From the NCBI GenBank assembly GCA_044356725.1, contig JBIKVS010000005.1, positions 7,876 through 71,875 of the forward strand: 64,000 nucleotides of DNA. The letters are read 5' to 3'. The stretch is from Minisyncoccia bacterium (lineage in GTDB: Bacteria; Patescibacteriota; Minisyncoccia; SW-4-49-11). The notes below the pieces were generated by a model. That model searched no databases. It was not told where the DNA came from and saw only the letters and a program-made list of their open reading frames with translations. Positions within the stretch are counted from its first letter, which is position 1. The number at the start of each line of letters is the position of its first letter. This document shows, piece by piece, positions 6,480 through 37,641 of the stretch. The translations under genes were made by a program, and so were the position numbers.

Positions 6480-7748
6480 TTATTGATGCTTTACAAAAGT
6501 CAAAGCCCAACCAATTTTACCACCACGACCAGTACGACCAATTCTATGAATATAATCCTCCTCGGTTCTAGGTAATTCGTAGTTAATTACGTGAGTAATA
6601 TCCCCAACATCAATACCACGAGAAGCCACATCAGTACCAATCATAATCCAAGCTTCATTGTTCTTAAATTTCTTCAAAGCAATTTGGCGATGCATTTGAG
6701 TTTTGTCACCATGAATAGACTCTACATCAAAACCATGCTGTTGTAAATCTCGATACAAATTCTCAACCGCCATCTTAGTCTCACAGAAAATAAGCACCTT
6801 CTTGACCTCATCTTTATTCAAGATATCCATCAACAAGTCCATCTTATTATCATTACGAGTCACAGGCACAATGTCCTGATGCACATTGTTACTAGACACA
6901 TTCTCAGACAAAAGTACACTCACAGGATCAACCAAGAAAGTCTCCATCAATTGCTTAGTCTTACCTTCAGTAGTAGCAGAGAAGAATAATTTTTGAGTCT
7001 CCTTAGGCAATAATTCTAAGATATATCGAATCTCATCAATGAATCCCATATCCAACATTCTATCCACCTCATCCAATACAATAGTAGAGAAAGTATTCAT
7101 ATCAATAGCCTTACGATTGATTAAATCTTTGAATCTACCAGGAGTTGCAATAATAAACTGATTATGACGAGACAAACGGAACATCTGCTTACGAATAGGA
7201 GTACCACCAATACAAACAGTACTATAAATACCTCTACCACGATTAGTAATCTTATGTAGTTCTTGTTCAATTTGCAAAGCCAACTCACGAGTAGGAGCCA
7301 GAATCACAGCAGACTGTTTAGGATCTAAAGTCATCTTATGCAAAAGAGGCAAAAGGAAAGCCAAAGTTTTACCAGTACCGGTCGCAGCCAGACCAATAAT
7401 ATCCTTACCTTCCATAATCGGCTTGATAGACTGATCTTGAATCGGAGTAGGATTAATCATCCCCTTTTCAGACAAAGCCTGTTGAATCCAATCAGCAAAA
7501 CCAAAGTCAGCAAAAGTGTGAGAAATCACAACTTCAGCAGCAGGAGTAGGTTTAGCAACCTTTACAAATAAAGAGTGATTTAATTGCTTAGGACCAGCTT
7601 TTCTTCTACCATATCTACCTCCGCCTCCAGCACCACCAAATCGTGACCTAGAACCAAAAGAACCACGAGAAGAACCATTATTATTATATCTATTAGAAGA
7701 ATTAGAGCGATTAGAAAATCGACTACTACTATTATTAGAGTACGCCAT
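6480..7748 (-). CDS. DEAD-box ATP-dependent RNA helicase with N-terminal RG/S-rich tail
   Basis: Q-motif region, GTGKT (motif I), DEVDRM (II), SAT (III), HRIGRTGR (VI). Probable start is the Met at 7748 (MAYSNNSS...); the ORF is open upstream to 7793. Confidence 0.85.
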   Translation of the reverse strand: MAYSNNSSSRFSNRSNSSNRYNNNGSSRGSFGSRSRFGGAGGGGRYGRRKAGPKQLNHSLFVKVAKPTPAAEVVISHTFADFGFADWIQQALSEKGMINPTPIQDQSIKPIMEGKDIIGLAATGTGKTLAFLLPLLHKMTLDPKQSAVILAPTRELALQIEQELHKITNRGRGIYSTVCIGGTPIRKQMFRLSRHNQFIIATPGRFKDLINRKAIDMNTFSTIVLDEVDRMLDMGFIDEIRYILELLPKETQKLFFSATTEGKTKQLMETFLVDPVSVLLSENVSSNNVHQDIVPVTRNDNKMDLLMDILNKDEVKKVLIFCETKMAVENLYRDLQQHGFDVESIHGDKTQMHRQIALKKFKNNEAWIMIGTDVASRGIDVGDITHVINYELPRTEEDYIHRIGRTGRGGKIGWALTFVKHQ

Positions 7749-7965
7749 ACAAAAAATATGTTTAAAAAATATGATATGGAATATAGATACCAATCATATA
7801 CATACTTAGTATAAACGACATCTATTGACCACATTGTCAAATATAATAACATATCAACCTAAATTTGTCAAGCTTTAATAACACCGATTGAAGGTGTCTA
7901 TTCTGTCCTCCCTTGGGGGAGGTGGCACCGTAGGTGACGGAGGAGGACTGAGCTAATTCCCCTAA

Positions 7966-9018
7966 TTATTCATTATCTTTCAAAAATTCTTTGATCTGTT
8001 TATCAAAATCAGATTCAAACAGCCTATCTTGCACAATTCTATATTTTTCAAATTGAGTTTCTGCATAAAGTTTAGCCTCCTCACTACTAATTTTACCTGC
8101 ATTGATAAGTATATCTCTATCATTAAATTCCAAAAAAGAATCAAGCCGCCTACTCCAATCCTCCATTGTCATAGGGATATTTCTCTCAGCCTGTAGCTCC
8201 GCATAATCAAGATACATAGAAACTATTCTTTCCAAAAAATTTATTTCCTTTTCTGTAAGATAATTTTTCGCAATACTTACATCATATTTTTGAATTTTAC
8301 CATTTGGAGCATCCAACCAGCTAGTAAGCCCCATATTTTCTTTATCAGCATTAGCTCTTTTTACAATCAATTCAGGAGCTGTATGTCTATGCACCGCATA
8401 ATGCAATTTATTTTGTACAATTTGGAAAAACTTAATAGTAGTAGAAGCAGAAGAATCATAATCAACACTAGTTGCATAAATATCCGTCACTTTTTGATAA
8501 AACATTCTTTCACTAAGCCTAATTTCTCTAATCTTTTGTAATTGTCTTTCAAAAAACTCTTTATCAAATTGATTAGCTTGCTTTAACCTTTCACTATCCA
8601 TAGCCCAACCCTGAATAGTATAATCTTTTACTATTTGTCTTGCCCATTTACGAAATTGTACAGCTCTGTCATTTTCTATCTTGAATCCAACTGCGATAAT
8701 AGCTTGGAGATTATAATGGTCTATATTCCTTTTTACTTCTCTTATACCTTCTCTTTGAACTATCAAGTATTGCTTGATAGTTGCTGAATCAATTTCTTTT
8801 TTTTCTACCAAAGTAGCAATATGCTGTTGTATAGCTTGCACAGATACCCCATACATTTCCGCCATCATTTTTTGAGTCATCCAGATATTTTCATCTTCAT
8901 ATCTGACCTCTATACTTTCCGAATCATCTCCACTCGAAGATACAAAAGTCAAATACTGAGCCGTACTTGCCTGAATAAGCTCCGCTGCAGATTTTTGCTT
9001 TAGTGTTTTTTTGGGCAT
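7966..9018 (-). CDS. RhuM-family protein (putative DNA-binding/virulence-associated)
   Basis: Conserved RhuM blocks: YNLQAIIAVGFKIENDRAVQFRKWARQIV, YQKVTDIYATS.DYD, KLHYAVHRHTAPELI. Paralogous to 43215-44222 and to the N-terminal half of 44785-45762. Confidence 0.6.
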   Translation of the reverse strand: MPKKTLKQKSAAELIQASTAQYLTFVSSSGDDSESIEVRYEDENIWMTQKMMAEMYGVSVQAIQQHIATLVEKKEIDSATIKQYLIVQREGIREVKRNIDHYNLQAIIAVGFKIENDRAVQFRKWARQIVKDYTIQGWAMDSERLKQANQFDKEFFERQLQKIREIRLSERMFYQKVTDIYATSVDYDSSASTTIKFFQIVQNKLHYAVHRHTAPELIVKRANADKENMGLTSWLDAPNGKIQKYDVSIAKNYLTEKEINFLERIVSMYLDYAELQAERNIPMTMEDWSRRLDSFLEFNDRDILINAGKISSEEAKLYAETQFEKYRIVQDRLFESDFDKQIKEFLKDNE

Positions 9019-9240
9019 AATTTTTATAATCAGGATATATATATTCTATTATACTATAATAATGACCTAATTTACAATATAAATTCATAGCGGAGGGTTT
9101 TGTTTTTCTATCACTCGCCTACGATGGTGTCAATAAGTGCCGGGTGTGGGATGAGTTTAACTATAAATGATGAATTATGAATTGTAGGGAGGGACCTTTC
9201 AGTCACATGTTTAACAAACTATTGCAAAAATATAACTTAT

Positions 9241-9636
9241 ATGGTATTTATTACTGGAACTCTATTGGATTCTCTTATGGCCATTTCTCTCATTACATTA
9301 CAAGGAGAAGGTGTTGTCCCTGCTTTCTTTCGCCACAATGAGACAACATATATACTTAGTACTTTCTTTTCTTATTTACAAAAAAGGGATATTGACATAG
9401 TTATCCAAACGGAGAACTATGCTCTTAGTCTAATGGTTTACAATAAATTATGTCAATATATGCCACTAAAAGAAGACCATACACTTTTAAAGTGTATAAG
9501 TAAATTCTTAGAGTCAAATAATTCATCAGATTGCCCACATACCAAGATATGTTATATAATCCACGGATACCTTCTCTTAGTTGAAAGTGGAATAATGGAT
9601 GTTGAAGCCGCCCCTAATGATGGAGGCTTTATGTAG
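9241..9636 (+). CDS. hypothetical protein
   Basis: 131-aa ORF followed by a strong terminator. No recognisable motifs. Confidence 0.3.
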   Translation: MVFITGTLLDSLMAISLITLQGEGVVPAFFRHNETTYILSTFFSYLQKRDIDIVIQTENYALSLMVYNKLCQYMPLKEDHTLLKCISKFLESNNSSDCPHTKICYIIHGYLLLVESGIMDVEAAPNDGGFM

Positions 9637-9660
9637 TAACTCTTTTACCACATTCCCTAC

Positions 9661-9690
9661 TTATCACTATCCCCCGCCACTGCGGGGGTT
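9661..9690 (+). terminator. Rho-independent terminator
   Basis: cccccgc-cact-gcggggg followed by a T7 run. Confidence 0.7.
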
Positions 9691-9776
9691 TTTTTCTTTC
9701 TGGTAAAAACCTAATATATGATATAATTAATAATATAAATATATTCGTAAAATTATTATCAATAATTACATAAACT

Positions 9777-10508
9777 ATGTCTAATCCCGAAAAATACAAT
9801 CCAAATTCAGAGTCTAATGTTTACGAAGAAGTTAGTGCCGCAGAAATTTTTGCAAATAGAGCTCAAAGAGGAGAAAATGCAGATGTGAGGGAAACAGATG
9901 AAGGAATGGTCGAGAAAAGTGATAAGGCTGGTAAAACACCATTAATTGCTAGAGAATTCATAATTACAGATTATCTTCGTAATACCGGAGTAGTGCCAAA
10001 AGTAGATGTAGATTCCGGTTTATATGGATATCCTTTAACTTTTCAAATGGAAAAAATTAATAATGGTGCATCTTTACAAGATTGGTTATACTATTACTCA
10101 CAAAGAGACAGAGGTATTTATGTCCCCAAAGAAACTATTGCTGAAATTCTAGACAAAACTGCAGAAGCTATCAAAAAAGTTTGGGACGAAGGAGTTGTAC
10201 AAGGTGATTTACATTTGAATAATATTATTATAGGAGAAAAGAAAAGAAAGCTAGCCCCACATATTATAGATTTTGGACTATCTGTTATTGACAGGGATAC
10301 CCTCCTAGAAGCAGCTCATAGCCTGGGGATTGAAGATGAAGTAGAAGAAGCCCAAGATTCTTTTACAAGAGAAATCATCTCCTCCTATGATGATTCAGAC
10401 GGAGAAGCGGAATTTTTGATATCACATCTTGAGAGCTATATTTGTGAAGCCAATATCCCTGGGTTAAATGACTTGGTTGTTAAACTAAACAAAAGCCTAA
10501 AGTTATAA
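9777..10508 (+). CDS. protein-kinase-like fold protein
   Basis: VVQGDLHLNNIIIGE (catalytic-loop-like HxDLxxxN) followed by IIDFGLSV (DFG). Confidence 0.4.
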   Translation: MSNPEKYNPNSESNVYEEVSAAEIFANRAQRGENADVRETDEGMVEKSDKAGKTPLIAREFIITDYLRNTGVVPKVDVDSGLYGYPLTFQMEKINNGASLQDWLYYYSQRDRGIYVPKETIAEILDKTAEAIKKVWDEGVVQGDLHLNNIIIGEKKRKLAPHIIDFGLSVIDRDTLLEAAHSLGIEDEVEEAQDSFTREIISSYDDSDGEAEFLISHLESYICEANIPGLNDLVVKLNKSLKL

Positions 10509-10566
10509 ATAATTGACATTTTGTACAATCTATGCTAACATGGGTAGCATTTTGTGAAGCTACTTA

Positions 10567-10968
10567 ATGAAAGGATCTTGGTTCATTGAGATAGATAAGG
10601 ATATTCTTAAGTTTATCAAGCCAATATACAGTCAAGTCCCTCAGAAACTTACAATTCCCTTGGGTTTTGGTGTGTTTGATGAGGATGACTACAATCTTTT
10701 CAAAACATGGTTAGATCTTGAGATCCAGATTCCGATAAATGGTATTATTGTTTTATCTCAACTAGGAGTACAGTTACTAAAATTCAATCTTTCAGAAAAC
10801 CTTCTAAGAGATTTTGCAGGATTAGATTATCCAGTAAAATCACAATGTGCTGTACTCTCTTATGAGAATCAATTTGACCCAGACATCCTTTTCCAGGATA
10901 TTGAGGGGAATACATCTAATTGCCATTTAACATCGCTTACTGGAAAAATACAATTCCAGTCTCTTTGA
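10567..10968 (+). CDS. hypothetical protein
   Basis: 133-aa ORF. A hairpin plus T-run (ccagcctgcttttaggctgg-atattttt) follows at 10976-11010. Confidence 0.3.
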   Translation: MKGSWFIEIDKDILKFIKPIYSQVPQKLTIPLGFGVFDEDDYNLFKTWLDLEIQIPINGIIVLSQLGVQLLKFNLSENLLRDFAGLDYPVKSQCAVLSYENQFDPDILFQDIEGNTSNCHLTSLTGKIQFQSL

Positions 10969-11187
10969 ACTAATCTGTCCAGCCTGCTTTTAGGCTGGAT
11001 ATTTTTATTTATATACTACCTTATTTACCTAATACTTCCCCTAAAAAATCCCCTCTTGAGGGGTGGACAGCTTCGCTGGACGGGGTGGATAATTAGTAAA
11101 AATATCTCCAAATGGAGAAAAAATCCAGATATTTGTCTTGCTCTATTCTATCCTGCAAGATAGCATATTGTAGTTGTACGTATTCAA

Positions 11188-12339
11188 TTACCGGAACCGA
11201 TACTTTTTCTGACATTTTTTCCAATAACTCATAAATGAACCATAATATGAATTAATCTCAGGATACATATAATCAATTGGTATAAAATTAATGTTAGGTA
11301 TCACATTCCAATGCTCAATCGCAGGATATTGTCTTGCTGTGATGGTTTTATAGTTACTAAGGTCTAAATCACCTATTTCACCCACAAATACCTGGAGATT
11401 ATCGATATTGGAGGCAAGATCAAGTATAAAATTAATTCGCTTTTGAGACATTGGAAACTTAACAAAATGACTTGGTTCTAGAATTAATATTCTATCAGAT
11501 TGAGAGATATGGCTAGCAAATGTTGGATCTAGACTCCAAGGATGAAACAATATAAGGTTTTCTGACTGTACGCCATTATGTTGATATAATTTCATAGCTG
11601 AATCTTGCTCCTGGTACTCCTCTATCCATATATTGAGGAGACATACCAAATCCAAATTCACTGTCTTAACAAGAACATCCGGTGTCTTTAATATTGCTAA
11701 TTCCTCATAAGACACATCAAGAAAGGTGTTATATTGATTTGTCTTAGAATACTTGTTGATATTTTCTTGATTTGCAAAATACTTTTTGGAACTAAATGTC
11801 CCTGATACCCATTGCCATGACAAAGTATTGGAGGCTATATCTCCATCTAGTAGATGATAATACATCCATTGACTTGGGATTTTCCAATATGATTTAGCGA
11901 TATTAGTGACTAGAGAAGCCGTCCACATTCTTGCATGATTATGCATATATCCAGTCTGGTAGAGTTCTTCAATGGCTGAGTCTATAGTATTGATACCAGT
12001 ATTAGCATCCACTATATTTAAGGAGATTTGAGTATTAGAATAAGATGCTGGATGTTTTAGGTCAGTCCAAATATCATCCATTTTATTTTCCCACACTCTA
12101 AGAAAATACTCCTTCCACGCAAGTTCAAATAGCAGCTTTTCTATCTTTTCAGATGAATAATTAGTTTCTAAAAAAGTTTTGACTTGATTTAGACCTATCA
12201 CCCCATGAGTAAGATAGGGCGATAAACGCGTCACATTTCCATCAAGAAAATCACGAGATTTAGAATAAGAAACTGGATCTATGTTGCTTATCAGGTCAAT
12301 TATTTGGCTATACTGAGTAGTAAATTGATTATCCCTCAT
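11188..12339 (-). CDS. cryptochrome/photolyase-family protein with permuted domain order (FAD-binding domain first, alpha/beta domain second)
   Basis: N-terminal half carries TRLSPYLTHG, QTGYMHNHARMWTASL and LLDGDIASNTLSWQWVSG, all hallmark FAD-binding-domain motifs. C-terminal half (LILFHPWSLD...) resembles the photolyase N-terminal alpha/beta domain. The start overlaps the stop of the upstream gene (TAATG). Confidence 0.6.
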   Translation of the reverse strand: MRDNQFTTQYSQIIDLISNIDPVSYSKSRDFLDGNVTRLSPYLTHGVIGLNQVKTFLETNYSSEKIEKLLFELAWKEYFLRVWENKMDDIWTDLKHPASYSNTQISLNIVDANTGINTIDSAIEELYQTGYMHNHARMWTASLVTNIAKSYWKIPSQWMYYHLLDGDIASNTLSWQWVSGTFSSKKYFANQENINKYSKTNQYNTFLDVSYEELAILKTPDVLVKTVNLDLVCLLNIWIEEYQEQDSAMKLYQHNGVQSENLILFHPWSLDPTFASHISQSDRILILEPSHFVKFPMSQKRINFILDLASNIDNLQVFVGEIGDLDLSNYKTITARQYPAIEHWNVIPNINFIPIDYMYPEINSYYGSFMSYWKKCQKKYRFR

Positions 12340-13643
12340 TACTCTTCGCTCTTAGCATTAGCAGGAAGTTCCGCAAACATTAATTGCATAGTAGAGTTAT
12401 CACGAGTTAATCTCTTGATCGTGAGGTCCTCTGCTTTATTATTAGCTAATCTTAGATTATTCTCAGAAGACAAGAGAGCATCTTTTGTTTTTTGTAAATG
12501 GTCGATAGTTTTATCTATCTCTTCAATAGCAGTTTTAAATTTACGACTAGCAAGGTCATAATTTTTAGCAAAGCCTTCTTTGAATTTATTTATATTATCC
12601 TCAAAGTTTGTAATATCAATATTTTGACTTTTTACCAAAGCAAGTTCTGCTTTATACTCCAAAGAATTCATAGCCGCATTGCGTAACAAAGTAATAATTG
12701 GAATAAAAAATTGCGGACGAACAACATACATTTTAGAAAACCGATGAGACACATCAACAATTCCAGAATTATACAGTTCATTATCAGCTTCCAACAGTGA
12801 CACAAGTACAGCATATTCACATTTCTTTTCTGTACGGTCCTTATCCAATTCTCGTAAAAAATCTTCATTTCGCTTTTTTGTAGCAGTTCCGTCTCCCTCA
12901 TTCTTCATTTCAAACATAATTGAGATAATCTCATTACCTGCTTGGTCTGTCTCACGATAAATAAAGTCACCCTTGCTACCAGTTTTAGAGTCATTATCTT
13001 TCTCAAAATAAGCATTCTGAAAAGCAGTCGCACGAAGTTTATTGAATTCTGTCTCACAATGCTGTTCCAGAGTTTCACCAACCATTTTGGTAGATAGTTT
13101 GAGCTTCATATCTTTACGAAGAGCAATTTCATCATCTTTCATTTTTATAATATCATCCTTTGTCTTCAGTTCAGATGCAAACTTCTCATATAGAGATTTC
13201 TCTAATAATTGTTTTTCAGTTTCCTTATTTTTCAAATTATGAGCCAAATCATCTCGCTCTTTTTCAATCCTTTTGACAGCCTCAGTAACACTAAGTTTTT
13301 TCTCTATCTCGGACTTATCAATTTTAGACTTCATCTCAGCTAGTTCAGCCTCTTTCTTTGCCAATTGCTCAGCTAATTTCCGATCCTTTTCAGCCTTTAA
13401 GTCTAATAAATCTCTATCCTTCTTGGCTAATTCCTCTTGTAATTTATTTTTTAAGTTAGATTCAGCTAATTTGACAGCAATTTCTTTTTCTTTCTCAGCA
13501 ATAGATAATCTCTCTCTTAATTCCTCCTCGAATTTATGGTCGCGAACCTGTTTAATAATATCCGCAAAACCAGCCTCATCAACTTTGAAAGCTTTTTTAC
13601 AATTTGGACAAATAATATCGTTCATAATTTTATTCTTATTCAT
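12339..13643 (-). CDS. DUF2130-like protein: N-terminal zinc ribbon, long coiled coil, C-terminal PD-(D/E)xK-like region
   Basis: [33 protein letters not shown], then about 200 aa of heptad-rich E/K sequence, then ...[22 protein letters not shown]... Translationally coupled to the photolyase-like gene. Confidence 0.45.
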
Positions 13644-13701
13644 TCAATATATTTATAAAACACCTCGTAGATAATAAATTCCCTACGAGGTGTTGATGTG
13701 T

Positions 13702-14886
13702 TTACAAAACCTGTCTCAAGACTTCGTTTTCAACTTTATCGTAACAACTTTGCCACACATGTTTATTTTTACCTAACTTATTTGCACTCTTTGCTTCCTT
13801 AAGATGATCAATTACTCTTGTAACTAACTCTGTTTTCATTTCATGAAACATTAAAATTGGATCTGTCTTCCATTTGCATAATCCATCTTTAATCTCAACT
13901 AAGTTCCTAAAAGAGGCAAGTATTGGTAGAATAAATGACGATGGAATAATATATTCTGAATATCCTTCAATAAATTCTAATTCAATTTGCTTCGTTCTTT
14001 TCTTGTTAGCAAGATACATAATACCTTCAAGTTTTCCAAATTTACCTCCCGTTGAATTCCATGTATCTGGCATTTCTTGGTAAATAATATTTTTTAGTTC
14101 AAGAATCTTAGGTAATAATGGTAAATACTTATTCAGCTTATCTCTATGATTTTTAAAATGATTTAGTACTCCAGCCTTACTGCTATAGGCCATTATAGGA
14201 TGACTATTATTATCAAAAGATTCTATGTCAAAACAAATTAAATATGATAATATATCTTTTATATCAATATCCTTTTTGGATCCATCATCATCAAACTCTG
14301 TTTCTTTATAGGCAATTCGATTTGCATAAGTTTCAGAACTCAAAATGTTTTTGATTAAATCAAAGTTACCATATAAATCTTCAATTCCCTGATCTTTCAC
14401 AGCTGCAGACTTATTGCGAGCATATACAATATTGACAGCTTCCTCTTTATCAGTAAATCCACTCAAAATTTCTATTCTCAGATATGCCTCATCAAATGTT
14501 ATACCATCCCCAAGATCTAGTTCATCTAAAAGATATCGTATCACTGTATATGTATGACCTCCATCTAAAATTCCATGTAGATCTGATTGAACCAATTCGA
14601 GATACATATCTTTAGTATTAGTTTTAAAGTCAACCTTATCTACAAGTAATGTAATTCCTCTATTTTTAAAGAAGAATTCTTTTGGGGCATCAGTTAAAGA
14701 TTTTGAAATAATTTTAGAAACTCCAGTTTTTTCTGTAGCTTCTCTAGGATTTATTTTTTTCCATTCTTGTAATTCCTTGGGTACATTTTCAACTTTTACC
14801 ACAGCAATATACATTTGTTTTCCTTCTTGTTCAAGAGGGTTAGGAATACGGCGAAATGATTCTACAGGGACTTTAATAATTTCCAT
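13702..14886 (-). CDS. ParB/Srx-superfamily (DGQHR/DUF262-like) protein, putative defence component
   Basis: GILDGGHTYTVIRYL resembles the DGQ(Q/H)R signature of DUF262/DndB-type ParB-like domains. 394 aa, lies inside the defence island. Followed by a 10-bp-stem hairpin at 13663-13698. Confidence 0.3.
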   Translation of the reverse strand: MEIIKVPVESFRRIPNPLEQEGKQMYIAVVKVENVPKELQEWKKINPREATEKTGVSKIISKSLTDAPKEFFFKNRGITLLVDKVDFKTNTKDMYLELVQSDLHGILDGGHTYTVIRYLLDELDLGDGITFDEAYLRIEILSGFTDKEEAVNIVYARNKSAAVKDQGIEDLYGNFDLIKNILSSETYANRIAYKETEFDDDGSKKDIDIKDILSYLICFDIESFDNNSHPIMAYSSKAGVLNHFKNHRDKLNKYLPLLPKILELKNIIYQEMPDTWNSTGGKFGKLEGIMYLANKKRTKQIELEFIEGYSEYIIPSSFILPILASFRNLVEIKDGLCKWKTDPILMFHEMKTELVTRVIDHLKEAKSANKLGKNKHVWQSCYDKVENEVLRQVL

Positions 14887-15197: not shown

Positions 15198-18100
15198 TTA
15201 TTTCACAATTTCTCGCTCTTCGGGGGTGAGTTGGTATAAGTCCATTACGAGTTCGTCAATTTCGGCTTCGAGGTGGATTGTGTCGCCATCTTTATTATAT
15301 TTTTTGGCTTCTAGAATTTGGTCTACTAAAGTTTGAATTTTATTAACCATATTTTCATTGGTTTCTGAGATTTTAGGGATAGGTATTTTTTCAAGAAATA
15401 TTTTTTTATATCTATAACCAGTTTCTCCTAGTCCTCCTCCAGCATAATATTTTTTAAAAATATAAGTGACAAAGTTTGAATTTAATAAACCACAAATATA
15501 TTTAATATTATTACCTGTAATCAAAAAAGTAGTAGCCTCACAATATAACTCACCCTTATCAAAATAAAATCTTGGCTCTCTCACAATTTCTGAGTACACC
15601 ACCTTCTCCTTTTCAAATTCGCCCATATAAGCACAATCTCTGAGATTATACTTTGTTTTACCTTTATCACCTCTTTTTGAAAGTTTTGGCTCATATTGAT
15701 TTAGGTGATTTTTTATAGCAGGATACCCATCTATTTGGATTGATGGCACACCTTTATATCCATTATGTGTAGTAATAAGGTATAATCCACTCTCTTCATA
15801 TCCATATCTTTTTATATCTCTTCCTCGTAGTATTAGCTTGATTATCTCTTCACTTTTTGGATCTTCTTTGATTAGTCTTGTTCTGGTCTCTTCATCAATG
15901 ATAAAGGCTTCATTTAGTCCTGTTAGAACTCCTCTATAAATATTTACATCCCAATTTTTGAGTGGTTTACCAAGCTTTTCAATTTTTTCTTTGAGGGCTA
16001 TTTCAGCTTTAGAGCCTATAAACCAAGTGTCTTTGGAAAGTTTATCTATATTTAATGAGTTTTTAGTAATATATTCAGTCAGGTTGTCTCCTTCTTTGAA
16101 ATCATTTTTGAAATGTATAGCTTGGAGTTGGTATTCTTGGGGAGTTCCTTTTTTAGCTAGATAAATATTGGTGTCTACTGTGGCTGATTTGAAGACTTTG
16201 AAGCCTCCAAAATCAATAAGTTGTAAGGGTATGGTATGATCGGCAAAATATCCCCTCAAAGCTTCGCCATAGCCTGCCCGCATCCATTTATTGGAGGTTA
16301 TGTAGCATAATATTCCGTCTTTTCGTAGTAAATCAAAACCTCTTTCATAAAATAAGGCATAAATATCTCCTGTAGATTTGAAAGTTAGATATCCCTCAGA
16401 TTTATAGGCTTTACTTATATATTCTGGGATGAGTTTTTTGTTTTGCAATTGTATATATGGCGGATTTCCAATTACTATGTCAAATCCTTCCGTGACTCCA
16501 AACATCCACTCTGGATCGAACCAGTCTGTGGCTTGATGAATAAATGGCTCCCAGTCTGCAATTTTTTTTGACATAATGCTACTGAATAATTTATCATATT
16601 TTTTTGTTAATTGCTTTTGAATTGATACAAATTGAGTTTTCAAACTTTCTTTTTCAGTATGTTCATTAAAAAATCTAGCTCTTAATGATTTTAATTTTGC
16701 AATTAATACTTCAATTTCTGGATCAGATAATTTACCTTGTCTAGTATTATTATCTAGGGATAATAAAGTGTTAGCGGATACAAATTTGAAGTCTAGGTTT
16801 GGGAGGGCTTCTATTCCCCTATTTTCTTTATTTTCTTGTATTTCTTGGTCAACTATTAAGGATAGGAAAAACCTTAGTCTAGAGATTTCTACGGCTGATT
16901 CTTGTATATCTACTCCGAATATACTAGTTTCTATAATTCCTAGTTTTCTTATATAGTCTATAGCTGGGTTAGATCTAAGTTCATTTCTTAGAGTCTCATT
17001 AGGTAATTTAGCTGTCATTAATTCTAGCCATAGGCTATTATCTGGGTCAATTTTTTGTAATATTATGAATATCTGTTGCAATATTCCCATTGGATAAGCT
17101 CCTGATCCACAGGCGGGGTCTAGGATTTTGAGTGTATCAAGGGCATTGATTATTGCTATTTTATTCTCGGGTGAAATATTGGATTCTTTATCAAAATTTT
17201 CAAAGCATAGGTCATCTAATATTTCTTTATTGATAGAAGTTTTATCTGCTAGATATTGTATGATTGTCTGTCTAACCATATATTCTACGATTGATCTTGG
17301 GGTATAAAAACTTCCTGTAGATTTGCGGGCTGTATCCCCTGTTTCTGGGTTTATCTCTCCTAGAAGATTTTCAAAGATTCTTCCGAGCATTTCTGGGTCT
17401 ACTGAGACTTCTACATCGGTAGTGCTATTCTCATCTATGGTAAAGTTATATCTTTCTAAAATTTGGAATATATCTTCAAAAAGAGAGTTATCTATTATTA
17501 GATTATTTTGATGTAATGAATATCCAGAAAAATTATCTAATTCATAGTAGTCTTGATTTATAGCTTCGAATAATCCTCCATTAAGATATGGTATTTGTTG
17601 AGAATACTTCAAACATTGACCTAGTGCATTATCGTCACGAGATCTAATTTTTTTATTAAGCATTTCAAAAAACACTTTTTCTAGTATTTGGTGATAATAG
17701 TCTGTATAATTCTGAACTGCTTTGGTAGAAATTAGTTCATCTGGGATTAAGCCTTTGCCTTGATTGTCTTTTTTGAATTTGAGAAACCAGACAAAAACTA
17801 ATCTTCCAATAAGTCTGACTGCAAAATCTTGATATATCTTGTGTCCTGTAATTGGATCTGTTGATGGTAATTTGAAAGCTGTATCATATTGTGCTTTAGC
17901 TGTTTTAGCTCCGACGAATTTATGAAACCAAGTGGCTATTTCCTTATAAAAGGCTTCGTTGACTTTCTCTACTGAAAAGGCTTCTATGATTTCGGCTAAA
18001 TTGATGTAGTTTAATTGTGAAATTCTATCTAGGAAGGTTTTATTGCTTTGTTCTCTATCTACAAAGTAGGTATATCTTTTGAAATTATTGTATTTTCTTT

Positions 18101-18482
18101 TATCATCTTGAATGTAGTTATAGATAAAGCTAAATCTGAAGTTAAAGTTGGAGTCATAGAATAAAAAGATTCCGTATTCAAATTGTTGTTGATTTTCTCG
18201 GATGAGATTTTTGGCTAAATCGTATTGTGCTTTCTTACCTGTTTTTTCGGATAGACTTCCATTGACTTTGACACTGATAAATCCTATTTTTTTATTATCT
18301 TCTAATACTTTGATTGCATATAAATATGGCTCAGAGAATTGGTTTTTGTCTATATTATATGTATATAATTCTTGCACTTGTATCATTGTGATACCTGGTA
18401 TATGACTGATATACTCTTCAAATGTATTATGAATTGAGTTTTCTGTCTGAGCCTGTATTATTTCTTGTAATAGGTGTTTCAT
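15198..18482 (-). CDS. Eco57I/MmeI-like N6-adenine DNA methyltransferase with TaqI_C-type specificity domain (Type IIG/IIL-like R-M protein)
   Basis: LDPACGSGAYPM (motif I), VIGNPPYIQ (motif IV, NPPY), C-terminal LTGLNEAF...RGRDIKRY target-recognition motif. 1094 aa. Confidence 0.75.
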   Translation of the reverse strand: MKHLLQEIIQAQTENSIHNTFEEYISHIPGITMIQVQELYTYNIDKNQFSEPYLYAIKVLEDNKKIGFISVKVNGSLSEKTGKKAQYDLAKNLIRENQQQFEYGIFLFYDSNFNFRFSFIYNYIQDDKRKYNNFKRYTYFVDREQSNKTFLDRISQLNYINLAEIIEAFSVEKVNEAFYKEIATWFHKFVGAKTAKAQYDTAFKLPSTDPITGHKIYQDFAVRLIGRLVFVWFLKFKKDNQGKGLIPDELISTKAVQNYTDYYHQILEKVFFEMLNKKIRSRDDNALGQCLKYSQQIPYLNGGLFEAINQDYYELDNFSGYSLHQNNLIIDNSLFEDIFQILERYNFTIDENSTTDVEVSVDPEMLGRIFENLLGEINPETGDTARKSTGSFYTPRSIVEYMVRQTIIQYLADKTSINKEILDDLCFENFDKESNISPENKIAIINALDTLKILDPACGSGAYPMGILQQIFIILQKIDPDNSLWLELMTAKLPNETLRNELRSNPAIDYIRKLGIIETSIFGVDIQESAVEISRLRFFLSLIVDQEIQENKENRGIEALPNLDFKFVSANTLLSLDNNTRQGKLSDPEIEVLIAKLKSLRARFFNEHTEKESLKTQFVSIQKQLTKKYDKLFSSIMSKKIADWEPFIHQATDWFDPEWMFGVTEGFDIVIGNPPYIQLQNKKLIPEYISKAYKSEGYLTFKSTGDIYALFYERGFDLLRKDGILCYITSNKWMRAGYGEALRGYFADHTIPLQLIDFGGFKVFKSATVDTNIYLAKKGTPQEYQLQAIHFKNDFKEGDNLTEYITKNSLNIDKLSKDTWFIGSKAEIALKEKIEKLGKPLKNWDVNIYRGVLTGLNEAFIIDEETRTRLIKEDPKSEEIIKLILRGRDIKRYGYEESGLYLITTHNGYKGVPSIQIDGYPAIKNHLNQYEPKLSKRGDKGKTKYNLRDCAYMGEFEKEKVVYSEIVREPRFYFDKGELYCEATTFLITGNNIKYICGLLNSNFVTYIFKKYYAGGGLGETGYRYKKIFLEKIPIPKISETNENMVNKIQTLVDQILEAKKYNKDGDTIHLEAEIDELVMDLYQLTPEEREIVK

Positions 18483-18545: not shown

Positions 18546-18656
18546 ATTTCTATCGACAAAAATTGTCGATAGAAATTTATTACCCGCTATATTGGCTTAT
18601 TTATAAGCTTTTTCTATCGACAATTTTTGTCGATAGATTGTCGATAGAAATTATTC
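18546..18656. promoter_or_regulatory. conserved operator-like module with perfect palindrome ATTTCTATCGACAA-AAA-TTGTCGATAGAAAT plus two further half-sites
   Basis: 31-bp perfect inverted repeat at 18546-18576. Second inverted repeat ctatcgacaa-ttt-ttgtcgatag at 18615-18637. Extra half-site ttgtcgatagaaat at 18640-18653. The same roughly 115-bp module recurs at 40965-41080. Confidence 0.5.
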
Positions 18657-20102
18657 ATCTAAAAATTTAGGGTTTAGATAATATCTAGTGTATCGATTCT
18701 CTCCTTGTTTTATTAGAATATCATTTTCAACTAGCATCGTAATTTCATATCGTGCCTTTCTATCATCTCCTTTCTTTTCCATATTATTGAGTTTACAATA
18801 TTCAGGATTTGATAATCCTTTGGCTGGATTATGTTTTAATTCCAAAAGAGCAACTAATTGAGTATCTTTCAATTTATATTTTTTTCTAAACTGAGCCAAC
18901 CAATTATGATCATTTTCCTGAACAAATGCCGATGTAAATAATGTTGTTTTGAATATTTCTCCGTTATTTTCAAATTTTGGCATAGGTAATCCTGAATCTT
19001 TTGTAGCATTTAATATGGTTCGTATTCCTCTACCTCTTGTCTCGGTAATACTATAATCTCGAAGGAATTTAATAAGTAAAGGATTTCTTGATTGTGGTGT
19101 TGCATTATCTATATTCTCTATTGGTACAAGACTTCTACCAGGATTTGCAAATTCTACTCTATCAGAGTAAATATCTATCTGTATTCTAGCGGTACGATTA
19201 GTATAATCTCTATGTGCGATTGCATTAGCTAAGGTTTCACGAATAGCAATTTCGGGAATTGCTAAATATTCTTTTCGTTTCAATTCTGTACTGATTTCAC
19301 TATGTACTGGTAGTTTGGAAATAATAAATTTAAGTGCATTATCAAATTGCTCGAGAACTGTCCCATTGAACTCTTTATCATCAATACTAACTTCCTCAAT
19401 ATTTTGTGATACTTTAGATACTCCTCTATATTGAGTGACTGCTATATTAAATGTAGGTGATCCTATATCTTGTAATGCTTCTTGTTTTGAAAATACTAAT
19501 AGCCCCAATAACGTAGGTTTATTATCTTTAATTACCTGCATCTTAGTTAGAATTTGATTAGGAGTAAAATCTTGATATATATTATATCTTTTTTTATTTA
19601 CTACTTTTATATAATCTAATACTTTTGTATTATCTATTGATTCTTCTATTGAGTTATCTAAAATTTTTAATTCTGCACCTCCTTCATTTGCTAATGCAAA
19701 TCTACGAATATGATCATCTGTTATTTGAGCATTTGTAGTCCCAGCTCTAATTCTTGCTCCTCGAGGGACACCTCGCTTTTTAGAATATATTGGTCGATGA
19801 TATGTAGGAGCTGGAGGTATATAAATTTGTATTATAGAATCTTTTGTAACTTTTACATCAGGAATAATCTCCACATTAAATACTGATTTACATATACTAT
19901 ATACACTCTGTTGTAATGTATCTAAATATTTGTTCTCAATACCATGTATAACACCATTCGTATCTATACCTAAATAGATAGTACCTCCATCTAAATTAGA
20001 AAAGGCTGAAATAGTTTCCCATAAAGCATCTGGTAATTTATCTTTTGTTATGAATTTAAACTCAACTGTGTCAGTTTCTATATTAGGGTATAAAGTATTC
20101 AT
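18651..20102 (-). CDS. AlbA_2 (Schlafen-like divergent AAA) + HATPase_c_4 domain protein (putative DNA-binding regulator/defence-associated)
   Basis: N-terminus TVEFKF...ISAFSNLDGGTIYLGIDTNGVIHGIEN (AlbA_2 signature). C-terminus RETLANAIAHRDY...IDIYSDRVEFANPG (HATPase_c_4). The start overlaps the stop of the upstream PLD-SNF2 gene. Confidence 0.65.
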   Translation of the reverse strand: MNTLYPNIETDTVEFKFITKDKLPDALWETISAFSNLDGGTIYLGIDTNGVIHGIENKYLDTLQQSVYSICKSVFNVEIIPDVKVTKDSIIQIYIPPAPTYHRPIYSKKRGVPRGARIRAGTTNAQITDDHIRRFALANEGGAELKILDNSIEESIDNTKVLDYIKVVNKKRYNIYQDFTPNQILTKMQVIKDNKPTLLGLLVFSKQEALQDIGSPTFNIAVTQYRGVSKVSQNIEEVSIDDKEFNGTVLEQFDNALKFIISKLPVHSEISTELKRKEYLAIPEIAIRETLANAIAHRDYTNRTARIQIDIYSDRVEFANPGRSLVPIENIDNATPQSRNPLLIKFLRDYSITETRGRGIRTILNATKDSGLPMPKFENNGEIFKTTLFTSAFVQENDHNWLAQFRKKYKLKDTQLVALLELKHNPAKGLSNPEYCKLNNMEKKGDDRKARYEITMLVENDILIKQGENRYTRYYLNPKFLDE

Positions 20103-23100
20103 TATTGTTTCTTATTTTCTATTGCAATTATTATATCTACGGATATTTTATCTGTTTCTTGTCTGATATTATTGAGATAATTTTCACTTAAATAGGATTT
20201 TAATTTGGTCAAAATATCTGTAAGTTCATCTATATTTTGAACTTTAGTGATTTTGCGAGCGGTTTCATCTGAAGTTGTTCCATAGGAGATTATATCTTCT
20301 CTGAGTTCTCTTGCGATTGTTTCTAGGTTTTTAGGTATTTGAAAATTATCTAAGTATTTATCTAAGACGGTAAGGGCTTTATCTTGTACGGTTTGGCTGG
20401 ATGTTCTGAGGGGTTTTTTACTTATAAACTTCTTTTGTAATTCTGGGTAATGTTGCCAAAAATTATTAGATAATTCAACAGCTTTATCGTCTGGATTGGC
20501 TTTAATATTATCTATTATTGATTCTATGGTTGGATCTTCTATTGTACTATCTGGTTCATAATTGGTTGATCTTACCTGGAAGGCTTTGCCTTTTTTGAGG
20601 AATACATATAGATTGTCTTGAGTACCTGTTTTGGCTACTTTTATTCTATCTGGTAGTCTTATGATTTTTTGGTATAGTTCTGGATGTTGTGATTGAAATT
20701 CAAAAAATTCTTTTCTAATTTTAGTTAGGAAGCTGGAGCTTTCTTCTTGTTCCGGATTGGTGGTGAGTCTTGTATATAGTCCTGCTGGAGTTGGTTGTTC
20801 GTCTATGTCAAAGATCTTAGCATCTTCTCCTAAGATTGTGTGTATCATAAACATTTTGTTGGTGGCGATTTCTTTGCTTTTGAGAATATTATTTCCTTTA
20901 TCTGTTGGGAAATAGTTATAAATATATAGTTTTTCGAATACTTTTGCACTGAGTCTGTTGATTCTTCCTACTCTTTGGATTACTCTTGTTGGATTCCATG
21001 GGATATCGTAGTTGATGACTATTCCTGCTCGATTGAGGTTGAATCCTTCTGAGATACGATCTGTTCCAAGTATAATATCATAATCATTGGCTTGTTCAGA
21101 TAATGATACTGAAGCGTCAAAATTAGTTTGAATTTTTTTATTTATATTATTATCTATACCTTTGTTAATTACTAAAACTCTGTTTGGGAAATACTTTTCT
21201 AATAATGGCTTAATGTATTCCAATGTATCTAAAAACTCTGTAAAAATTACTGTTTTACGATTTGGTTCTTTGTGTAATGACGATTTTATGGATTCTATTA
21301 GTTTTTGGGCTTTTGGATCTTGGTTGACTTGATTTAGCGATAATTCTTCAATTTCACTTTTGATGTGTTTTAATAATTCTATATCTGCTTTGATATTATT
21401 GATAAAGTCATTTTTTTGTAAGAATGCTTTACTGTATAGGTTGTATACTGATTTCTTAGTTTTAACTTTATTTATATCTTTTTTTGATTCTTGTTCTAAT
21501 CTTTCGATTTCTTTTCTAATTTCATTGAAATCTAGGTCTTCATCATCTTGGAATTTATCGAATAATTCTCTAGCGAAGATGTATTTTCCTGTTTCATCTA
21601 TAACTTTATCTACAAATTCGTATAATTTGAGTGTATTTATAATACTTTGATAAAATGAACCGAAGGAACTTTCAAATCTTTTGACTAAATGTCTAGTCAT
21701 AAAGTCAAAAAGATTGTTCTGAGCTTGGTATTCAAAGTTTTCTGCAAGTCCTGTTATTTTCTCGGGGGACTTTTTATAATTACCAGCTTCATATACTACT
21801 GGTCTATATATTGCTCCAGTGAATTTGCCTTCTCTTCCAAAATATCTTTGTATAACATTGTCATAAAATTCAGATTGCTCAGGGTCTAGTTCAAATAACT
21901 GAGCTTCTGGATCTTGAACTTGTGACATATCTGGGATGTCTTTTTGATAGACTGGATCTTGTTCTAAATCTTTACGATTTCTTCGGATTAGGACGGGTTC
22001 TATAATTGATCTTACTTGATCTGATAGGTATCTAGCTCTAATATTGAGATGTTCTATGTCTATTTTGTCTACTTTTTTTCCTATCAAAGACTGATAATCT
22101 TGCAATGCTCTTTGTTGTTTGAGAGGGTCTGGCGATTTATAATTTTTACGGATGTCTGAGATTCTCTTGAAATCATTTTCAAATACTCTGAATTGGTATT
22201 CTAAATTACCATCTATTGAAATCCTTGATTGTTTTGGTATATCAAATAACTTAACCATTGAGAAAAAGTCAGATGGTGAGTTGTTAAAAGGGGTTGCTGT
22301 TAATAAAATTACTTTGCGGTTTTTACAAAGAATATTGAGGGCTTCATATTGTGAGGTATTTTCATTACGAAATCTATGTGCCTCATCTACTAAAACATAT
22401 TCATATTTGTCTCTTAATTTGTCTGATTGGTATTTTTCTAAAAAGCCTTCTACATTTCCTGATGAAATAATATCCCAATGCTTAAAATCAAAGGTTTCTT
22501 TATAATTTGCCCAACCACTTGTATGTGCTTCTCCAATTAGTCCTGGTGGGCTGACTATTATTCCTTTGCCTAAGCCAAGTTCTCGGATTATCATACTGGA
22601 TATAACTGACTTCCCTAGCCCTACAACATCGGCAATAATTACTCCATTATAATTCTCTATTGCTGATAGTGCTTGTTGTACGGCATCTAATTGATATTGA
22701 TATGGAGTAAATCCATTTGCTCTTAGTACATCTTGTATCCCTGATGAAACTTCTTGTTGACTTTTTGACTTGATATATGTCTCCAAAACCTTCATATATG
22801 CTTCATAGGGAGTTATATTGGCAACTTGGGTTTCGTCTTGTATGGTTTCAAATAATCTTTGTTTAATGACATCATTTTCGGTAATTTCAATAGATGTGTC
22901 CCATAGGGTATCAAAATATTTTATACTTTCTTCTACTGGATGATTATCTAACAGTTGTACATTATATTCATTCTGAGTGTTTAATCCAGCTTGTGTGAGA
23001 TTACTGCTACCTGTAATTACTACACCTTTATTGACTATATTATTTTCTAATTCAAAAATGTATAATTTAGCATGATTTGGATCTAAGGTTTTGCGAATTA

Positions 23101-23500
23101 TTAATTTGTTTTCCTGTATCATTTGTAAAAAGAACTTTACTTGTTCATAAAACTCTTTGGTATCATTATTTTTATGATTTAATGACTTTTTAATGGATTG
23201 TATATAATCGTCTATATGTTGCTCTTTACTTTTTTTGATATAACCTATTCTTTCTCTCTCTTTGCGGGACTCGGGAGGAGTGACACCAAATTCCACTACT
23301 TTTTGTATGTCACTATCTATATTTAGTCCTACTAGAATCTTGAGTTGTATATTAGGTTTTTTCATTAAGCTATCGAGTAAAACCTCTATCCCGGAAAAAT
23401 AAAAAAATCCAACTAAAAATTTCAGCTCTTTACTTTGTGAAATAAGCTCTTTTACTCTAGTTTCAAGAGTTAAATTTTTATCTGAATTAGAAATAAACAT
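20102..23500 (-). CDS. PLD-family nuclease (HKD) fused to SNF2-family helicase
   Basis: N-terminus HAKLYIFE...GSSNLT (HxK...GSxN PLD motif). Helicase motifs GLGKS (I), DEAHRFRN (II), LLTATPFNN (III), QRVGRINR (VI). 1132 aa. Confidence 0.75.
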   Translation of the reverse strand: MFISNSDKNLTLETRVKELISQSKELKFLVGFFYFSGIEVLLDSLMKKPNIQLKILVGLNIDSDIQKVVEFGVTPPESRKERERIGYIKKSKEQHIDDYIQSIKKSLNHKNNDTKEFYEQVKFFLQMIQENKLIIRKTLDPNHAKLYIFELENNIVNKGVVITGSSNLTQAGLNTQNEYNVQLLDNHPVEESIKYFDTLWDTSIEITENDVIKQRLFETIQDETQVANITPYEAYMKVLETYIKSKSQQEVSSGIQDVLRANGFTPYQYQLDAVQQALSAIENYNGVIIADVVGLGKSVISSMIIRELGLGKGIIVSPPGLIGEAHTSGWANYKETFDFKHWDIISSGNVEGFLEKYQSDKLRDKYEYVLVDEAHRFRNENTSQYEALNILCKNRKVILLTATPFNNSPSDFFSMVKLFDIPKQSRISIDGNLEYQFRVFENDFKRISDIRKNYKSPDPLKQQRALQDYQSLIGKKVDKIDIEHLNIRARYLSDQVRSIIEPVLIRRNRKDLEQDPVYQKDIPDMSQVQDPEAQLFELDPEQSEFYDNVIQRYFGREGKFTGAIYRPVVYEAGNYKKSPEKITGLAENFEYQAQNNLFDFMTRHLVKRFESSFGSFYQSIINTLKLYEFVDKVIDETGKYIFARELFDKFQDDEDLDFNEIRKEIERLEQESKKDINKVKTKKSVYNLYSKAFLQKNDFINNIKADIELLKHIKSEIEELSLNQVNQDPKAQKLIESIKSSLHKEPNRKTVIFTEFLDTLEYIKPLLEKYFPNRVLVINKGIDNNINKKIQTNFDASVSLSEQANDYDIILGTDRISEGFNLNRAGIVINYDIPWNPTRVIQRVGRINRLSAKVFEKLYIYNYFPTDKGNNILKSKEIATNKMFMIHTILGEDAKIFDIDEQPTPAGLYTRLTTNPEQEESSSFLTKIRKEFFEFQSQHPELYQKIIRLPDRIKVAKTGTQDNLYVFLKKGKAFQVRSTNYEPDSTIEDPTIESIIDNIKANPDDKAVELSNNFWQHYPELQKKFISKKPLRTSSQTVQDKALTVLDKYLDNFQIPKNLETIARELREDIISYGTTSDETARKITKVQNIDELTDILTKLKSYLSENYLNNIRQETDKISVDIIIAIENKKQ

Positions 23501-31100: not shown

Positions 31101-31170
31101 CATCAAAAACCCTAATCAAAGCCTCTGTCGCTTCTATTTGGTATTGTTGTTGTTTGAAATGCAGTTTCAT
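28126..31170 (-). CDS. res: Type III restriction enzyme Res subunit (helicase + PD-(D/E)xK endonuclease)
   Basis: TGTGKTYVY (motif I), IIDEPQRF (motif II), C-terminal PDWAIVF...IYFIAETKG nuclease motif. 1014 aa. Confidence 0.8.
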   Translation of the reverse strand: MKLHFKQQQYQIEATEALIRVFDGQNKESGKQVLGRELYNKGQLDQQWVDEYMFANRRLDLDYSKLLSNLQKIQKEQGLPVSQKLEGGYNFTVEMETGTGKTYVYTKSMFELNRAYGWNKFIIMVPSIAIREGVLKSLQITSDHFQELYGKKLRYFAYDTKNSSNLVNIKKFVQSSEIEVIVMNYQAFGSRGKDNRKIFQEIDALNSEKPIDLIRKTNPILIIDEPQRFGKTAESMLQEFSPLFIVRYSATHKEEFNKIYRLDAIDAYNKKLVKKIRVKGIEAKGSTGTNSYLFLDRINISTREYPNASIQMEIETKQGNGIKKVLKKIREGDNLYDISGELAQYQGFVVKEINALTNTVSFTNGVSLEVGQVMGNIDEKHIRTIQIREAIASHLEKEQELYALGIKVLTLFFIDEVSKYRAYDEAGNIIRSEYEEIFEREYTRAVSQQNLLAPEYEQYLNQWEVSKIHNGYFSIDKKGRAIDSKDKQSEGGSDDIDAYNLIMKEKERLLSLSEPTRFIFSHSALREGWDNPNIFQICTLRHSSSSISKRQEIGRGLRIAVNQYGERMDFSALDDRFFDVNTVTIIANESYDTFANELQREIFDSLSHRPIIVEVPLFEGKLLKSKDGEDSMTMTSKDAMDLIMKLNKENYIDENYHITDTLVQGISTGDWSVPESLEPYKEHLAEILMSVYNTSVYKATENDRKQNIKEENIKPNDNFYKQEFQNLWSKLKVKTSYTVSFDTEELVDVSIKAIDRELNVQRVMIQVTKGEQVNEIRTEYVKTKTTMTKLSSQMHKAENVLGDLKYDLIAEIAKEANITRKTVAKILSRISPHKFMLFQENPEHFIKEVSRIIQEQKATTLINHITYNQTGQIYEDDVFTINNLRGELGKNIQEVKRHIYSYVKTDSEIEYRFADDLEKNNENVLVYAKLPRGFFIPTPVGNYNPDWAIVFYERNIKHIYFIAETKGSLSSMQLKTVEKLKIDYAKKHFEALGHDSVIYDVVDTYQHLMDKVMR

Positions 31171-37637: not shown

Positions 37638-37641
37638 AGAT

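Follow-up and report, generated by a model that had tools for sequence, protein, structure and literature searches.

Photolyases in which the catalytic flavin adenine dinucleotide (FAD)-binding domain occupies the N-terminal part of the protein were described as the 'inverted topology' class NewPHL (Emmerich et al. 2020, NAR; PMC7736829) and, independently, as short photolyase-like proteins (SPL; Xu et al. 2021, MBE; PMC8476157). In five published NewPHL members, the photolyase FAD domain (PF03441) starts at residues 71–78 and ends at residues 196–212, and two members repair cyclobutane pyrimidine dimers (CPDs), in single-stranded DNA only (PMC7736829). CPD repair was also demonstrated for one SPL; the Bacteroidetes subgroup 'Ba' of the SPLs lacks the four Fe–S cysteines, and some SPL genes form an operon with an FeS-BCP photolyase gene (PMC8476157). 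DUF2130 (PF09903/COG4487) is listed in a survey of the PD-(D/E)XK superfamily, its function being given as 'unknown' (PMC3424549), while in the Shield system the nuclease ShdA, which has an RmuC domain and is described as membrane-bound, defends alone and is accompanied by variable accessory genes (Macdonald et al. 2023, PMC10270631). Here, a NewPHL/SPL-type photolyase and a DUF2130 protein are encoded by two overlapping genes in a 64,000-nucleotide stretch of DNA (contig JBIKVS010000005.1, positions 7,876 to 71,875; the window hereafter), which from the names of its closest matches among metagenome-assembled genomes (MAGs) looks like a chromosome of the Patescibacteria (Candidate Phyla Radiation, CPR). 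The two genes do not form a conserved two-gene system. With a probability of roughly 80 %, they represent an ordinary photolyase gene and a nuclease-like DUF2130 gene of solitary, mobile character, which became overlapped neighbours via cassette shuffling in a hypervariable defence island.

Both genes are located on the minus strand, the DUF2130 gene (434 amino acids; 12339–13643, from the list of open reading frames (ORFs) and Pfam) preceding the photolyase gene (383 amino acids; 11188–12339, stop codon included), which encodes an N-terminal FAD catalytic domain together with a C-terminal Z-domain. The two overlapping ORFs noted in the initial annotation of this DNA do exist, with the strand corrected to minus. 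Direct reading of the sequence places the stop/start overlap TAATG at 12337–12341 (minus-strand junction GAAGAG-TAATG-AGG), the TAA stop and the ATG having one base in common. Such one-base overlaps are frequent at operon junctions and, taken alone, nothing unusual.

Co-occurrence was counted in loci whose flanks reached a minimum length, namely 75 DUF2130 loci with a downstream flank of 1.2 kb or more (including loci at 88–96 % identity) and 59 NewPHL loci with an upstream flank of 1.3 kb or more. None of the 75 DUF2130 loci carries a NewPHL gene downstream, and DUF2130 lies upstream of NewPHL in a single one of the 59 NewPHL loci, namely L098 (98 % identical); at 60–90 % identity DUF2130 is found beside NewPHL in 0/4 loci, and below 60 % in 0/54. 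Altogether, the pair is confined to L007 (91 %), L098 and two short contigs, L008 and L009 (96 %), i.e., to one narrow lineage, and each of these contigs carries the two genes at 90 % or higher identity to those of the window. No DUF2130 gene is present near the NewPHL homologues of L006 (76 % identity) or of L001 and L004 (61 %).

The most telling case for independence of the two genes is provided by L011 and L012, which share the chromosomal flank of the window (rpoB, nucleoside deoxyribosyltransferase, DEAD helicase; 92–99 % DNA identity) and encode a DUF2130 protein 96.5 % identical to that of the window, with no NewPHL gene following it. Homology ends at window position 12374, 35 nucleotides before the DUF2130 stop codon, and resumes at 7908, at the DEAD helicase gene; the intervening 4.4 kb of the window (NewPHL, three small ORFs and RhuM) are replaced by 1.6 kb of other genes. 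On the side of the photolyase gene, the block aligned by blastn ends at 11123 in L008, L009, L010 and L097, beyond which these four contigs go on in different ways. Between the window and L007, NewPHL has a synonymous divergence of 0.25 and DUF2130 one of 0.69, a discordance which suggests separate histories of the two genes. The proposal that the pair might be a candidate uncharacterised system hence finds no support and fails the synteny check set for it in the initial annotation, the adjacency being limited to one narrow lineage and absent from the sister locus L011. A false lead is thereby cleared: the reversed-domain photolyase belongs to a class described since 2020, and the adjoining nuclease gene is in all likelihood a chance neighbour.

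Pfam recognizes the FAD domain PF03441 (residues 71–206, E 3e-21) as the sole domain of the 383-residue protein; the antenna domain PF00875 finds no Pfam match in it, and for the 183 residues at its C-terminus a threshold as loose as E ≤ 10 still produced no Pfam match. In the NCBIfam comparison, residues 12–203 align with positions 219–423 of the 431-position CRY-DASH model, i.e., with the catalytic C-terminal half of a normal photolyase, which places the FAD domain N-terminally. The domain order proposed in the initial annotation, an N-terminal FAD domain followed by an alpha/beta domain, is thus corroborated by the position of PF03441, and the AlphaFold model agrees. The reversed order holds as an observation and fails as a novelty, since it is what defines the NewPHL/SPL class as published. 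A mis-called start, which could have masked an N-terminal antenna domain and hence a normal domain order, is ruled out by the upstream DNA, which encodes DUF2130 in a different frame. The AlphaFold2 model (built with 50 homologues) reached a predicted local distance difference test (pLDDT) score of 95.3 and a predicted template modelling score (pTM) of 0.93, and a Foldseek search of the PDB with the whole model retrieved solely photolyases and cryptochromes, with about 210–240 aligned columns corresponding to the FAD domain. A homologue search covering 5.8 billion proteins yielded over 5000 homologues of full length, with about 360–400 amino acids (typically ~375) and all with PF03441 only; many of them belong to Chitinophagaceae and other Bacteroidota and are annotated as 'FAD-binding domain-containing protein'.

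The segment encoding the active-site and FAD-contacting residues (11809–12126, minus strand) was delimited by BLASTP against E. coli Phr and phmmer against 1TEZ of Synechococcus. It contains E72, W75, N134, R137, M138, W152, D165, D167, N171, W175 and W177, corresponding in this order to E274, W277, N341, R344, M345, W359, D372, D374, N378, W382 and W384 of E. coli Phr. Judged against both reference proteins, the CPD-binding set (E72, W75, N134, M138 and W177) is intact; across 50 homologues, W75 and N134 are invariant and E72, M138 and W177 at least 90 % conserved. The FAD contacts R137, D165, D167 and N171 are kept as well, which answers the question, raised in the initial annotation, of whether lesion-binding and FAD residues persist in this protein. 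Two substitutions relative to E. coli Phr were found at the FAD site (A377 to S170 and G381 to S174). Among the electron-transferring tryptophans, the proximal W175 (W382 in Phr) and the medial W152 (W359) are present, while the distal W306 falls into an alignment gap, matching the incomplete triad of NewPHL/SPL proteins. The dN/dS ratio (nonsynonymous to synonymous substitutions) of the NewPHL gene is 0.09–0.17. The protein contains two cysteines only, which rules out the SPL subtype with a four-cysteine Fe–S site. Judging from sequence and structural model, the protein is predicted to be a photolyase of the NewPHL/SPL class, displaying every published class feature tested; this assignment is based on those features.

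The Z-domain (residues 228–383; 11191–11658, minus strand) follows the FAD domain and carries the conserved residues W268, S298 and F369; among 43 diverse NewPHLs (17–70 % identity), F369 never varies, and conservation at W268 and S298 is no lower than 90 %. The corresponding motif reads S-F-M in the window protein and S-F-F in the consensus of its relatives, the published class motif being GFF. The fold of this domain, reported as unknown, is now confidently modelled by AlphaFold2 from residues 228–383 alone as an alpha/beta domain containing five main strands (pLDDT 90.5). Foldseek comparison of the isolated Z-domain with the PDB returned nothing below E 0.001; Rossmann-like methyltransferases, all above E 0.009, dominate the list, in which cryptochrome 3 ranks only 47th (E 0.17), yet has the top query TM-score (0.41). 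A profile hidden Markov model of 43 Z-domains retrieved a single spurious match among the PDB sequences (E 0.27). Alignment by hhalign with eight canonical N-domains (those of E. coli Phr and of seven photolyases encoded beside NewPHL genes in the retrieved loci) was colinear and non-significant (P 0.009, probability 4 %): strand 1 (ILFHPWSLDP), strand 2 with the following helix (RILILEPSHF..PMS..R..FIL) and strand 3 (LQVFVGE) were matched to the photolyase elements LVWFRQDLRL, LYIATP...MS... and L.V..G., respectively. A second high-scoring segment pair of the BLASTP comparison has the same register (residues 275–323 versus residues 22–70 of E. coli Phr, E 0.67). The Z-domain may therefore bear a weak, colinear and statistically non-significant resemblance to the antenna domain. 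The term 'circularly permuted' of the initial annotation is accordingly upheld in so far as the order is reversed, and goes too far in so far as it implies homology between Z-domain and antenna domain, for which neither Foldseek (E 0.17) nor hhalign (P 0.009) reached significance. The parallel order of strands and helices has a weak bearing on whether NewPHLs are ancestral or domain-swapped.

NewPHL genes were observed beside other photolyase genes in many loci (L001, L110, L112, L118–L120, L153 and L155). In L001 (4385–8673), an FeS-BCP/DPRP photolyase gene is located upstream and a gene for a FolC-like ligase downstream of NewPHL, and several marine and freshwater contigs carry a full-length canonical photolyase gene 0.3–1.1 kb downstream of it. 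These photolyase-type neighbours agree with the SPL/FeS-BCP operon reported by Xu et al. (PMC8476157). In the more distant relatives L004 and L001, NewPHL is found near rpoB (and groEL) and near Dus, respectively. One may speculate that NewPHL has long resided in this chromosomal region and that the island grew up around it.

The 434-residue protein is assigned to PF09903 (DUF2130) over residues 157–414 (E 7.5e-88; 294.5 bits versus a cut-off of 26.7 bits), and NCBIfam holds no model for it. Its true start is probably Met7 (ATG at 13625), since the homologues comprise 425–428 amino acids. An N-terminal knuckle C12-P-N-C15 (13599–13610, minus strand) is near-invariant in an alignment of 83 sequences; a second Cys pair is not present near it, and the Pfam family Zn_ribbon_4 stays below threshold (E 0.014; 15.8 bits versus a cut-off of 30.3 bits). 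Of the zinc ribbon postulated earlier, the CxxC motif is real, the full ribbon reducing to a single knuckle. Composition and Pfam boundaries point to a charged, low-complexity, coiled-coil-like stretch of ~150 residues after the knuckle. The PD-(D/E)xK catalytic core (D226 ... E245-M-K247; 12903–12968, minus strand) was likewise located in the 83-sequence alignment, in which E192/E197, D226, E245-x-K247 and E276 are near-invariant. These conserved C-terminal acidic and lysine residues are consistent with the listing of DUF2130 in the PD-(D/E)XK survey (PMC3424549). The three-part reading of this protein (CxxC, coiled coil, PD-(D/E)xK) in the initial annotation is upheld, with a catalytic signature intact in 83 homologues.

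DUF2130 proteins are 85–100 % identical across many Patescibacteria, with 85–98 % identical representatives in MAGs of Paceibacterota, Spechtbacterales, Azambacteria, Falkowbacteria, Magasanikbacteria and Roizmanbacteria, and 57–81 % identical in Bacteroidota, Pseudomonadota and others. The gene also occurs at ~60 % identity on 73 plasmids (Bradyrhizobium, Ralstonia, Lactococcus); the context examined on pBel61 (hypothetical proteins, transposases, LigD) was uninformative. A tblastn search against 50,697 phage records gave no match to DUF2130. From its sequence and distribution, DUF2130 appears to be a solitary, highly conserved and mobile PD-(D/E)xK coiled-coil protein. Being mobile, phage-free and associated with restriction-modification (RM) and defence genes, and having retained its putative nuclease site, it makes a reasonable candidate for a factor that acts in defence or recombination as a single gene. 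The degree of conservation, ~60 % identity between CPR and Bradyrhizobium plasmids, is unusual for a mobile gene.

The nearest neighbours of DUF2130 are diverse, with 97 Pfam families upstream and 79 downstream in 75–77 loci. The commonest are HsdR (4 loci), AAA_15/AAA_21 (4, with OLD-TOPRIM in 3) and GmrSD (3), followed by HNH (3), helicase-nucleases of the DUF4011/MTES_1575 type (3) and HARE-HTH (2); PF03441 is a neighbour in L007 and L098 only. A role as obligate RM subunit is ruled out by the presence of HsdR upstream in just 4/75 loci. HsdR-DUF2130-HARE-HTH is a recurring arrangement: in L015 (6289–7026) and L017 (from ~7250), DUF2130 is located directly 3' of Type I HsdR and followed after about 1–10 nucleotides by a HARE-HTH gene, the products of which have nearly alike N-termini (MNTFKQSAIEILK). 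In L020, L022 and L029 (Bacteroidota), a gene for a protein of ~1936 amino acids starts 12–33 nucleotides past DUF2130 (about 7279–13107); Pfam family counts across loci suggest that this protein combines DUF4011, an AAA_11/AAA_12 helicase, an MTES_1575 endonuclease and DUF3320.

Several observations weigh against a mere neighbourhood of the two genes: (i) the overlapped junction is retained in all four pair-bearing contigs (4/4), as TAATG or, in L098 and L007, as TGATG, (ii) no terminator was found between the DUF2130 and NewPHL genes on the minus strand of the window, (iii) a strong hairpin (13659–13694, minus strand) separates the pair from the upstream AIPR gene, and (iv) about 15 of 77 DUF2130 loci have a same-strand gene within ~20 nucleotides downstream. 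These close downstream genes were identified in part only (HARE-HTH, large helicase-nucleases and NewPHL) and could be exchangeable partners rather than signify the lack of a partner. According to RNA folding, this hairpin, situated between the stop of AIPR and the start of DUF2130, comprises 13 bp and a subsequent UUUU; its folding energy is -19.3 kcal/mol (z = -5.45), and none of 200 shuffled sequences equalled its stability. It is probably the AIPR terminator, in which case DUF2130-NewPHL would be a transcription unit of its own. A consensus scan detected two terminator-like hairpins with T-runs 3' of NewPHL, at 11105–11118 and 11050–11063 (region 11050–11118, minus strand). Since an intergenic terminator is lacking, a hairpin lies upstream and the overlap is kept, both proteins are very probably made together here, presumably from one DUF2130-NewPHL transcript with coupled translation in this lineage. 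A functional link confined to this lineage is conceivable.

The best-surviving alternative is accordingly a recent but functional, lineage-specific repair operon, whose two co-expressed products, the DUF2130 nuclease and NewPHL, would share damaged or single-stranded DNA as substrate; the nuclease might, for instance, resect or cleave at stalled intermediates while the photolyase removes dimers from the exposed single strand. Such an operon would fit the junction kept in L007, L098, L008 and L009, the signals flanking an uninterrupted gene pair, the action of characterized NewPHLs on single-stranded DNA and the purifying selection acting on both genes (dN/dS 0.07–0.17). However, the pair is missing from all other DUF2130 or NewPHL loci sampled, the nearest sister locus L011 has DUF2130 without NewPHL, and the two genes disagree in synonymous divergence, which leaves this explanation unlikely.

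The close downstream genes of DUF2130 lead to a different and very improbable possibility, i.e., that DUF2130 is a stand-alone, RmuC/ShdA-like nuclease against foreign DNA which takes interchangeable, translationally coupled downstream modules, and that the photolyase fold has here been recruited as a specificity module for defence, binding single-stranded DNA or lesions. Such modules could be NewPHL in the window, HARE-HTH in L015/L017 and large helicase-nucleases elsewhere.

Even less credence is given to a new anti-phage system, in which a photolyase-like sensor of single-stranded phage DNA or unusual bases would, without repairing dimers, activate or guide the DUF2130 nuclease. The position of the pair between the AIPR/Type IIG RM genes and a RhuM gene in a defence island, the frequent occurrence of DUF2130 at the 3' end of RM operons and its absence from the phage genomes searched point in this direction, but NewPHL is an ordinary family member with its full repair active site kept, its relatives reside in housekeeping or photolyase contexts, no PADLOC model matches either DUF2130 or NewPHL, and the co-occurrence is not conserved. 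That the 383-residue protein senses light as a bacterial cryptochrome and regulates the neighbouring gene, rather than being a repair enzyme, is similarly improbable, for although SPLs with C-terminal extensions were suggested as possible cryptochromes and repair by RfSPL is weak (PMC8476157), the equivalents of E274 and N341, which mark repair enzymes as opposed to NewCRY-type sensors, are present, and CPD repair was shown for two NewPHLs and one SPL.

The favoured explanation therefore remains that of two functionally independent genes, which became neighbours in the variable island part of one narrow Patescibacteria (CPR)-like lineage. The N-terminal all-alpha domain of NewPHL would bind FAD and flip in a CPD; upon excitation of FADH- by blue light, an electron would be donated and the dimer split. 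The Z-domain is predicted to pack on the FAD pocket where an N-terminal antenna domain usually sits. By analogy to the two characterized members, the substrate is probably single-stranded DNA. DUF2130 is most likely a stand-alone, Mg-dependent DNA nuclease, which has been spread horizontally and may serve to ward off foreign DNA or to control recombination, in a manner close to that of RmuC-domain proteins. The TAATG overlap, though probably giving co-transcription and coupled translation in this strain, would then be a local accident of cassette shuffling and not the sign of a conserved partnership.

The pair is embedded in a defence island of ~38 kb (window 7966–45762), flanked on the left by genes for a DEAD helicase, tRNA-Glu/Arg and rpoB, and on the right by Dus and KsgA. 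The defence setting described in the initial annotation was confirmed, including AIPR, Type IIG RM, RhuM, GmrSD and Type III RM. Encoded in the island are RhuM/PDC-S05 (7966–9018), AIPR (13702–14886), a Type IIG RM protein (15198–18482), a Schlafen/AlbA_2 protein with HATPase_c_4 (18651–20102), a PLD-SNF2 helicase (20102–23500), GmrSD (25839–27635), Type III Res (28126–31170) and Mod (31179–33116), DUF4391 with an SNF2 helicase (37017–40881), a second RhuM (43215–44222) and, as third RhuM copy, a RhuM-Fic fusion (44785–45762). A protein-kinase-like ORF of 243 amino acids (within 9777–10968), with a sub-threshold Pkinase match and weak PADLOC matches to PD-T4-6 and MkoA, adjoins in the same segment an ORF of 133 amino acids without family match. 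In the 96 % identical L008, a 2-kb segment containing both (9112–11123) is absent, ~460 nucleotides being found instead, which marks the kinase-like and 133-residue ORFs as an indel cassette. An ORF of 1235 amino acids on the plus strand in the middle of the island (33266–36973) has just sub-threshold matches to HTH_11 and HEAT.

Compared to published NewPHL/SPL proteins, the window photolyase agrees in (i) the N-terminal FAD domain with PF03441 starting near residue 71 and the lack of an antenna domain, (ii) a C-terminal Z-domain of ~135–155 amino acids containing a single conserved Trp and the motif G/S-F-F, (iii) retention of the CPD-binding residues together with the proximal and medial Trp only, (iv) a length of 383 amino acids within the range of 250–400, and (v) the lack of a four-cysteine Fe–S site, as in the SPL subgroups A, Ba and Be. 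It differs in its S-F-M motif (S-F-F in relatives) from G-F-F of the class, and in the location of its gene in a defence island overlapping DUF2130, a context absent from the main text of both class descriptions (PMC7736829, PMC8476157). Moreover, its host is apparently a member of the Patescibacteria/CPR, a group not among the SPL hosts given (PMC8476157), and the occurrence of NewPHL/SPL photolyases would accordingly extend to this group. With class I CPD photolyases and CRY-DASH (1TEZ, 1DNP, 1NP7), the protein shares the all-alpha FAD domain (22–28 % identity; E 5e-15 to 1TEZ; Foldseek probability 1.0) and the same active-site residues, whereas the reversed domain order, the lack of PF00875 and of the distal Trp, and the lack of roughly the last third of the PF03441 profile (positions 146–203) set it apart.

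For DUF2130, the comparison with RmuC (PF02646) and ShdA is one of architecture only, since DUF2130 has no match to Pfam PF02646 or to the Shield models of PADLOC and the hhalign comparison with E. coli RmuC is non-significant (P 0.23); moreover, its N-terminus carries a CxxC knuckle, in contrast to the described membrane-bound nature of ShdA. The overall plan is nevertheless alike, in that a long coiled coil is followed by a PD-(D/E)xK nuclease domain, and DUF2130, similar to ShdA, is a single gene often situated in defence islands with variable neighbours. By analogy of plan, ShdA may thus be regarded as the nearest characterized counterpart of DUF2130.

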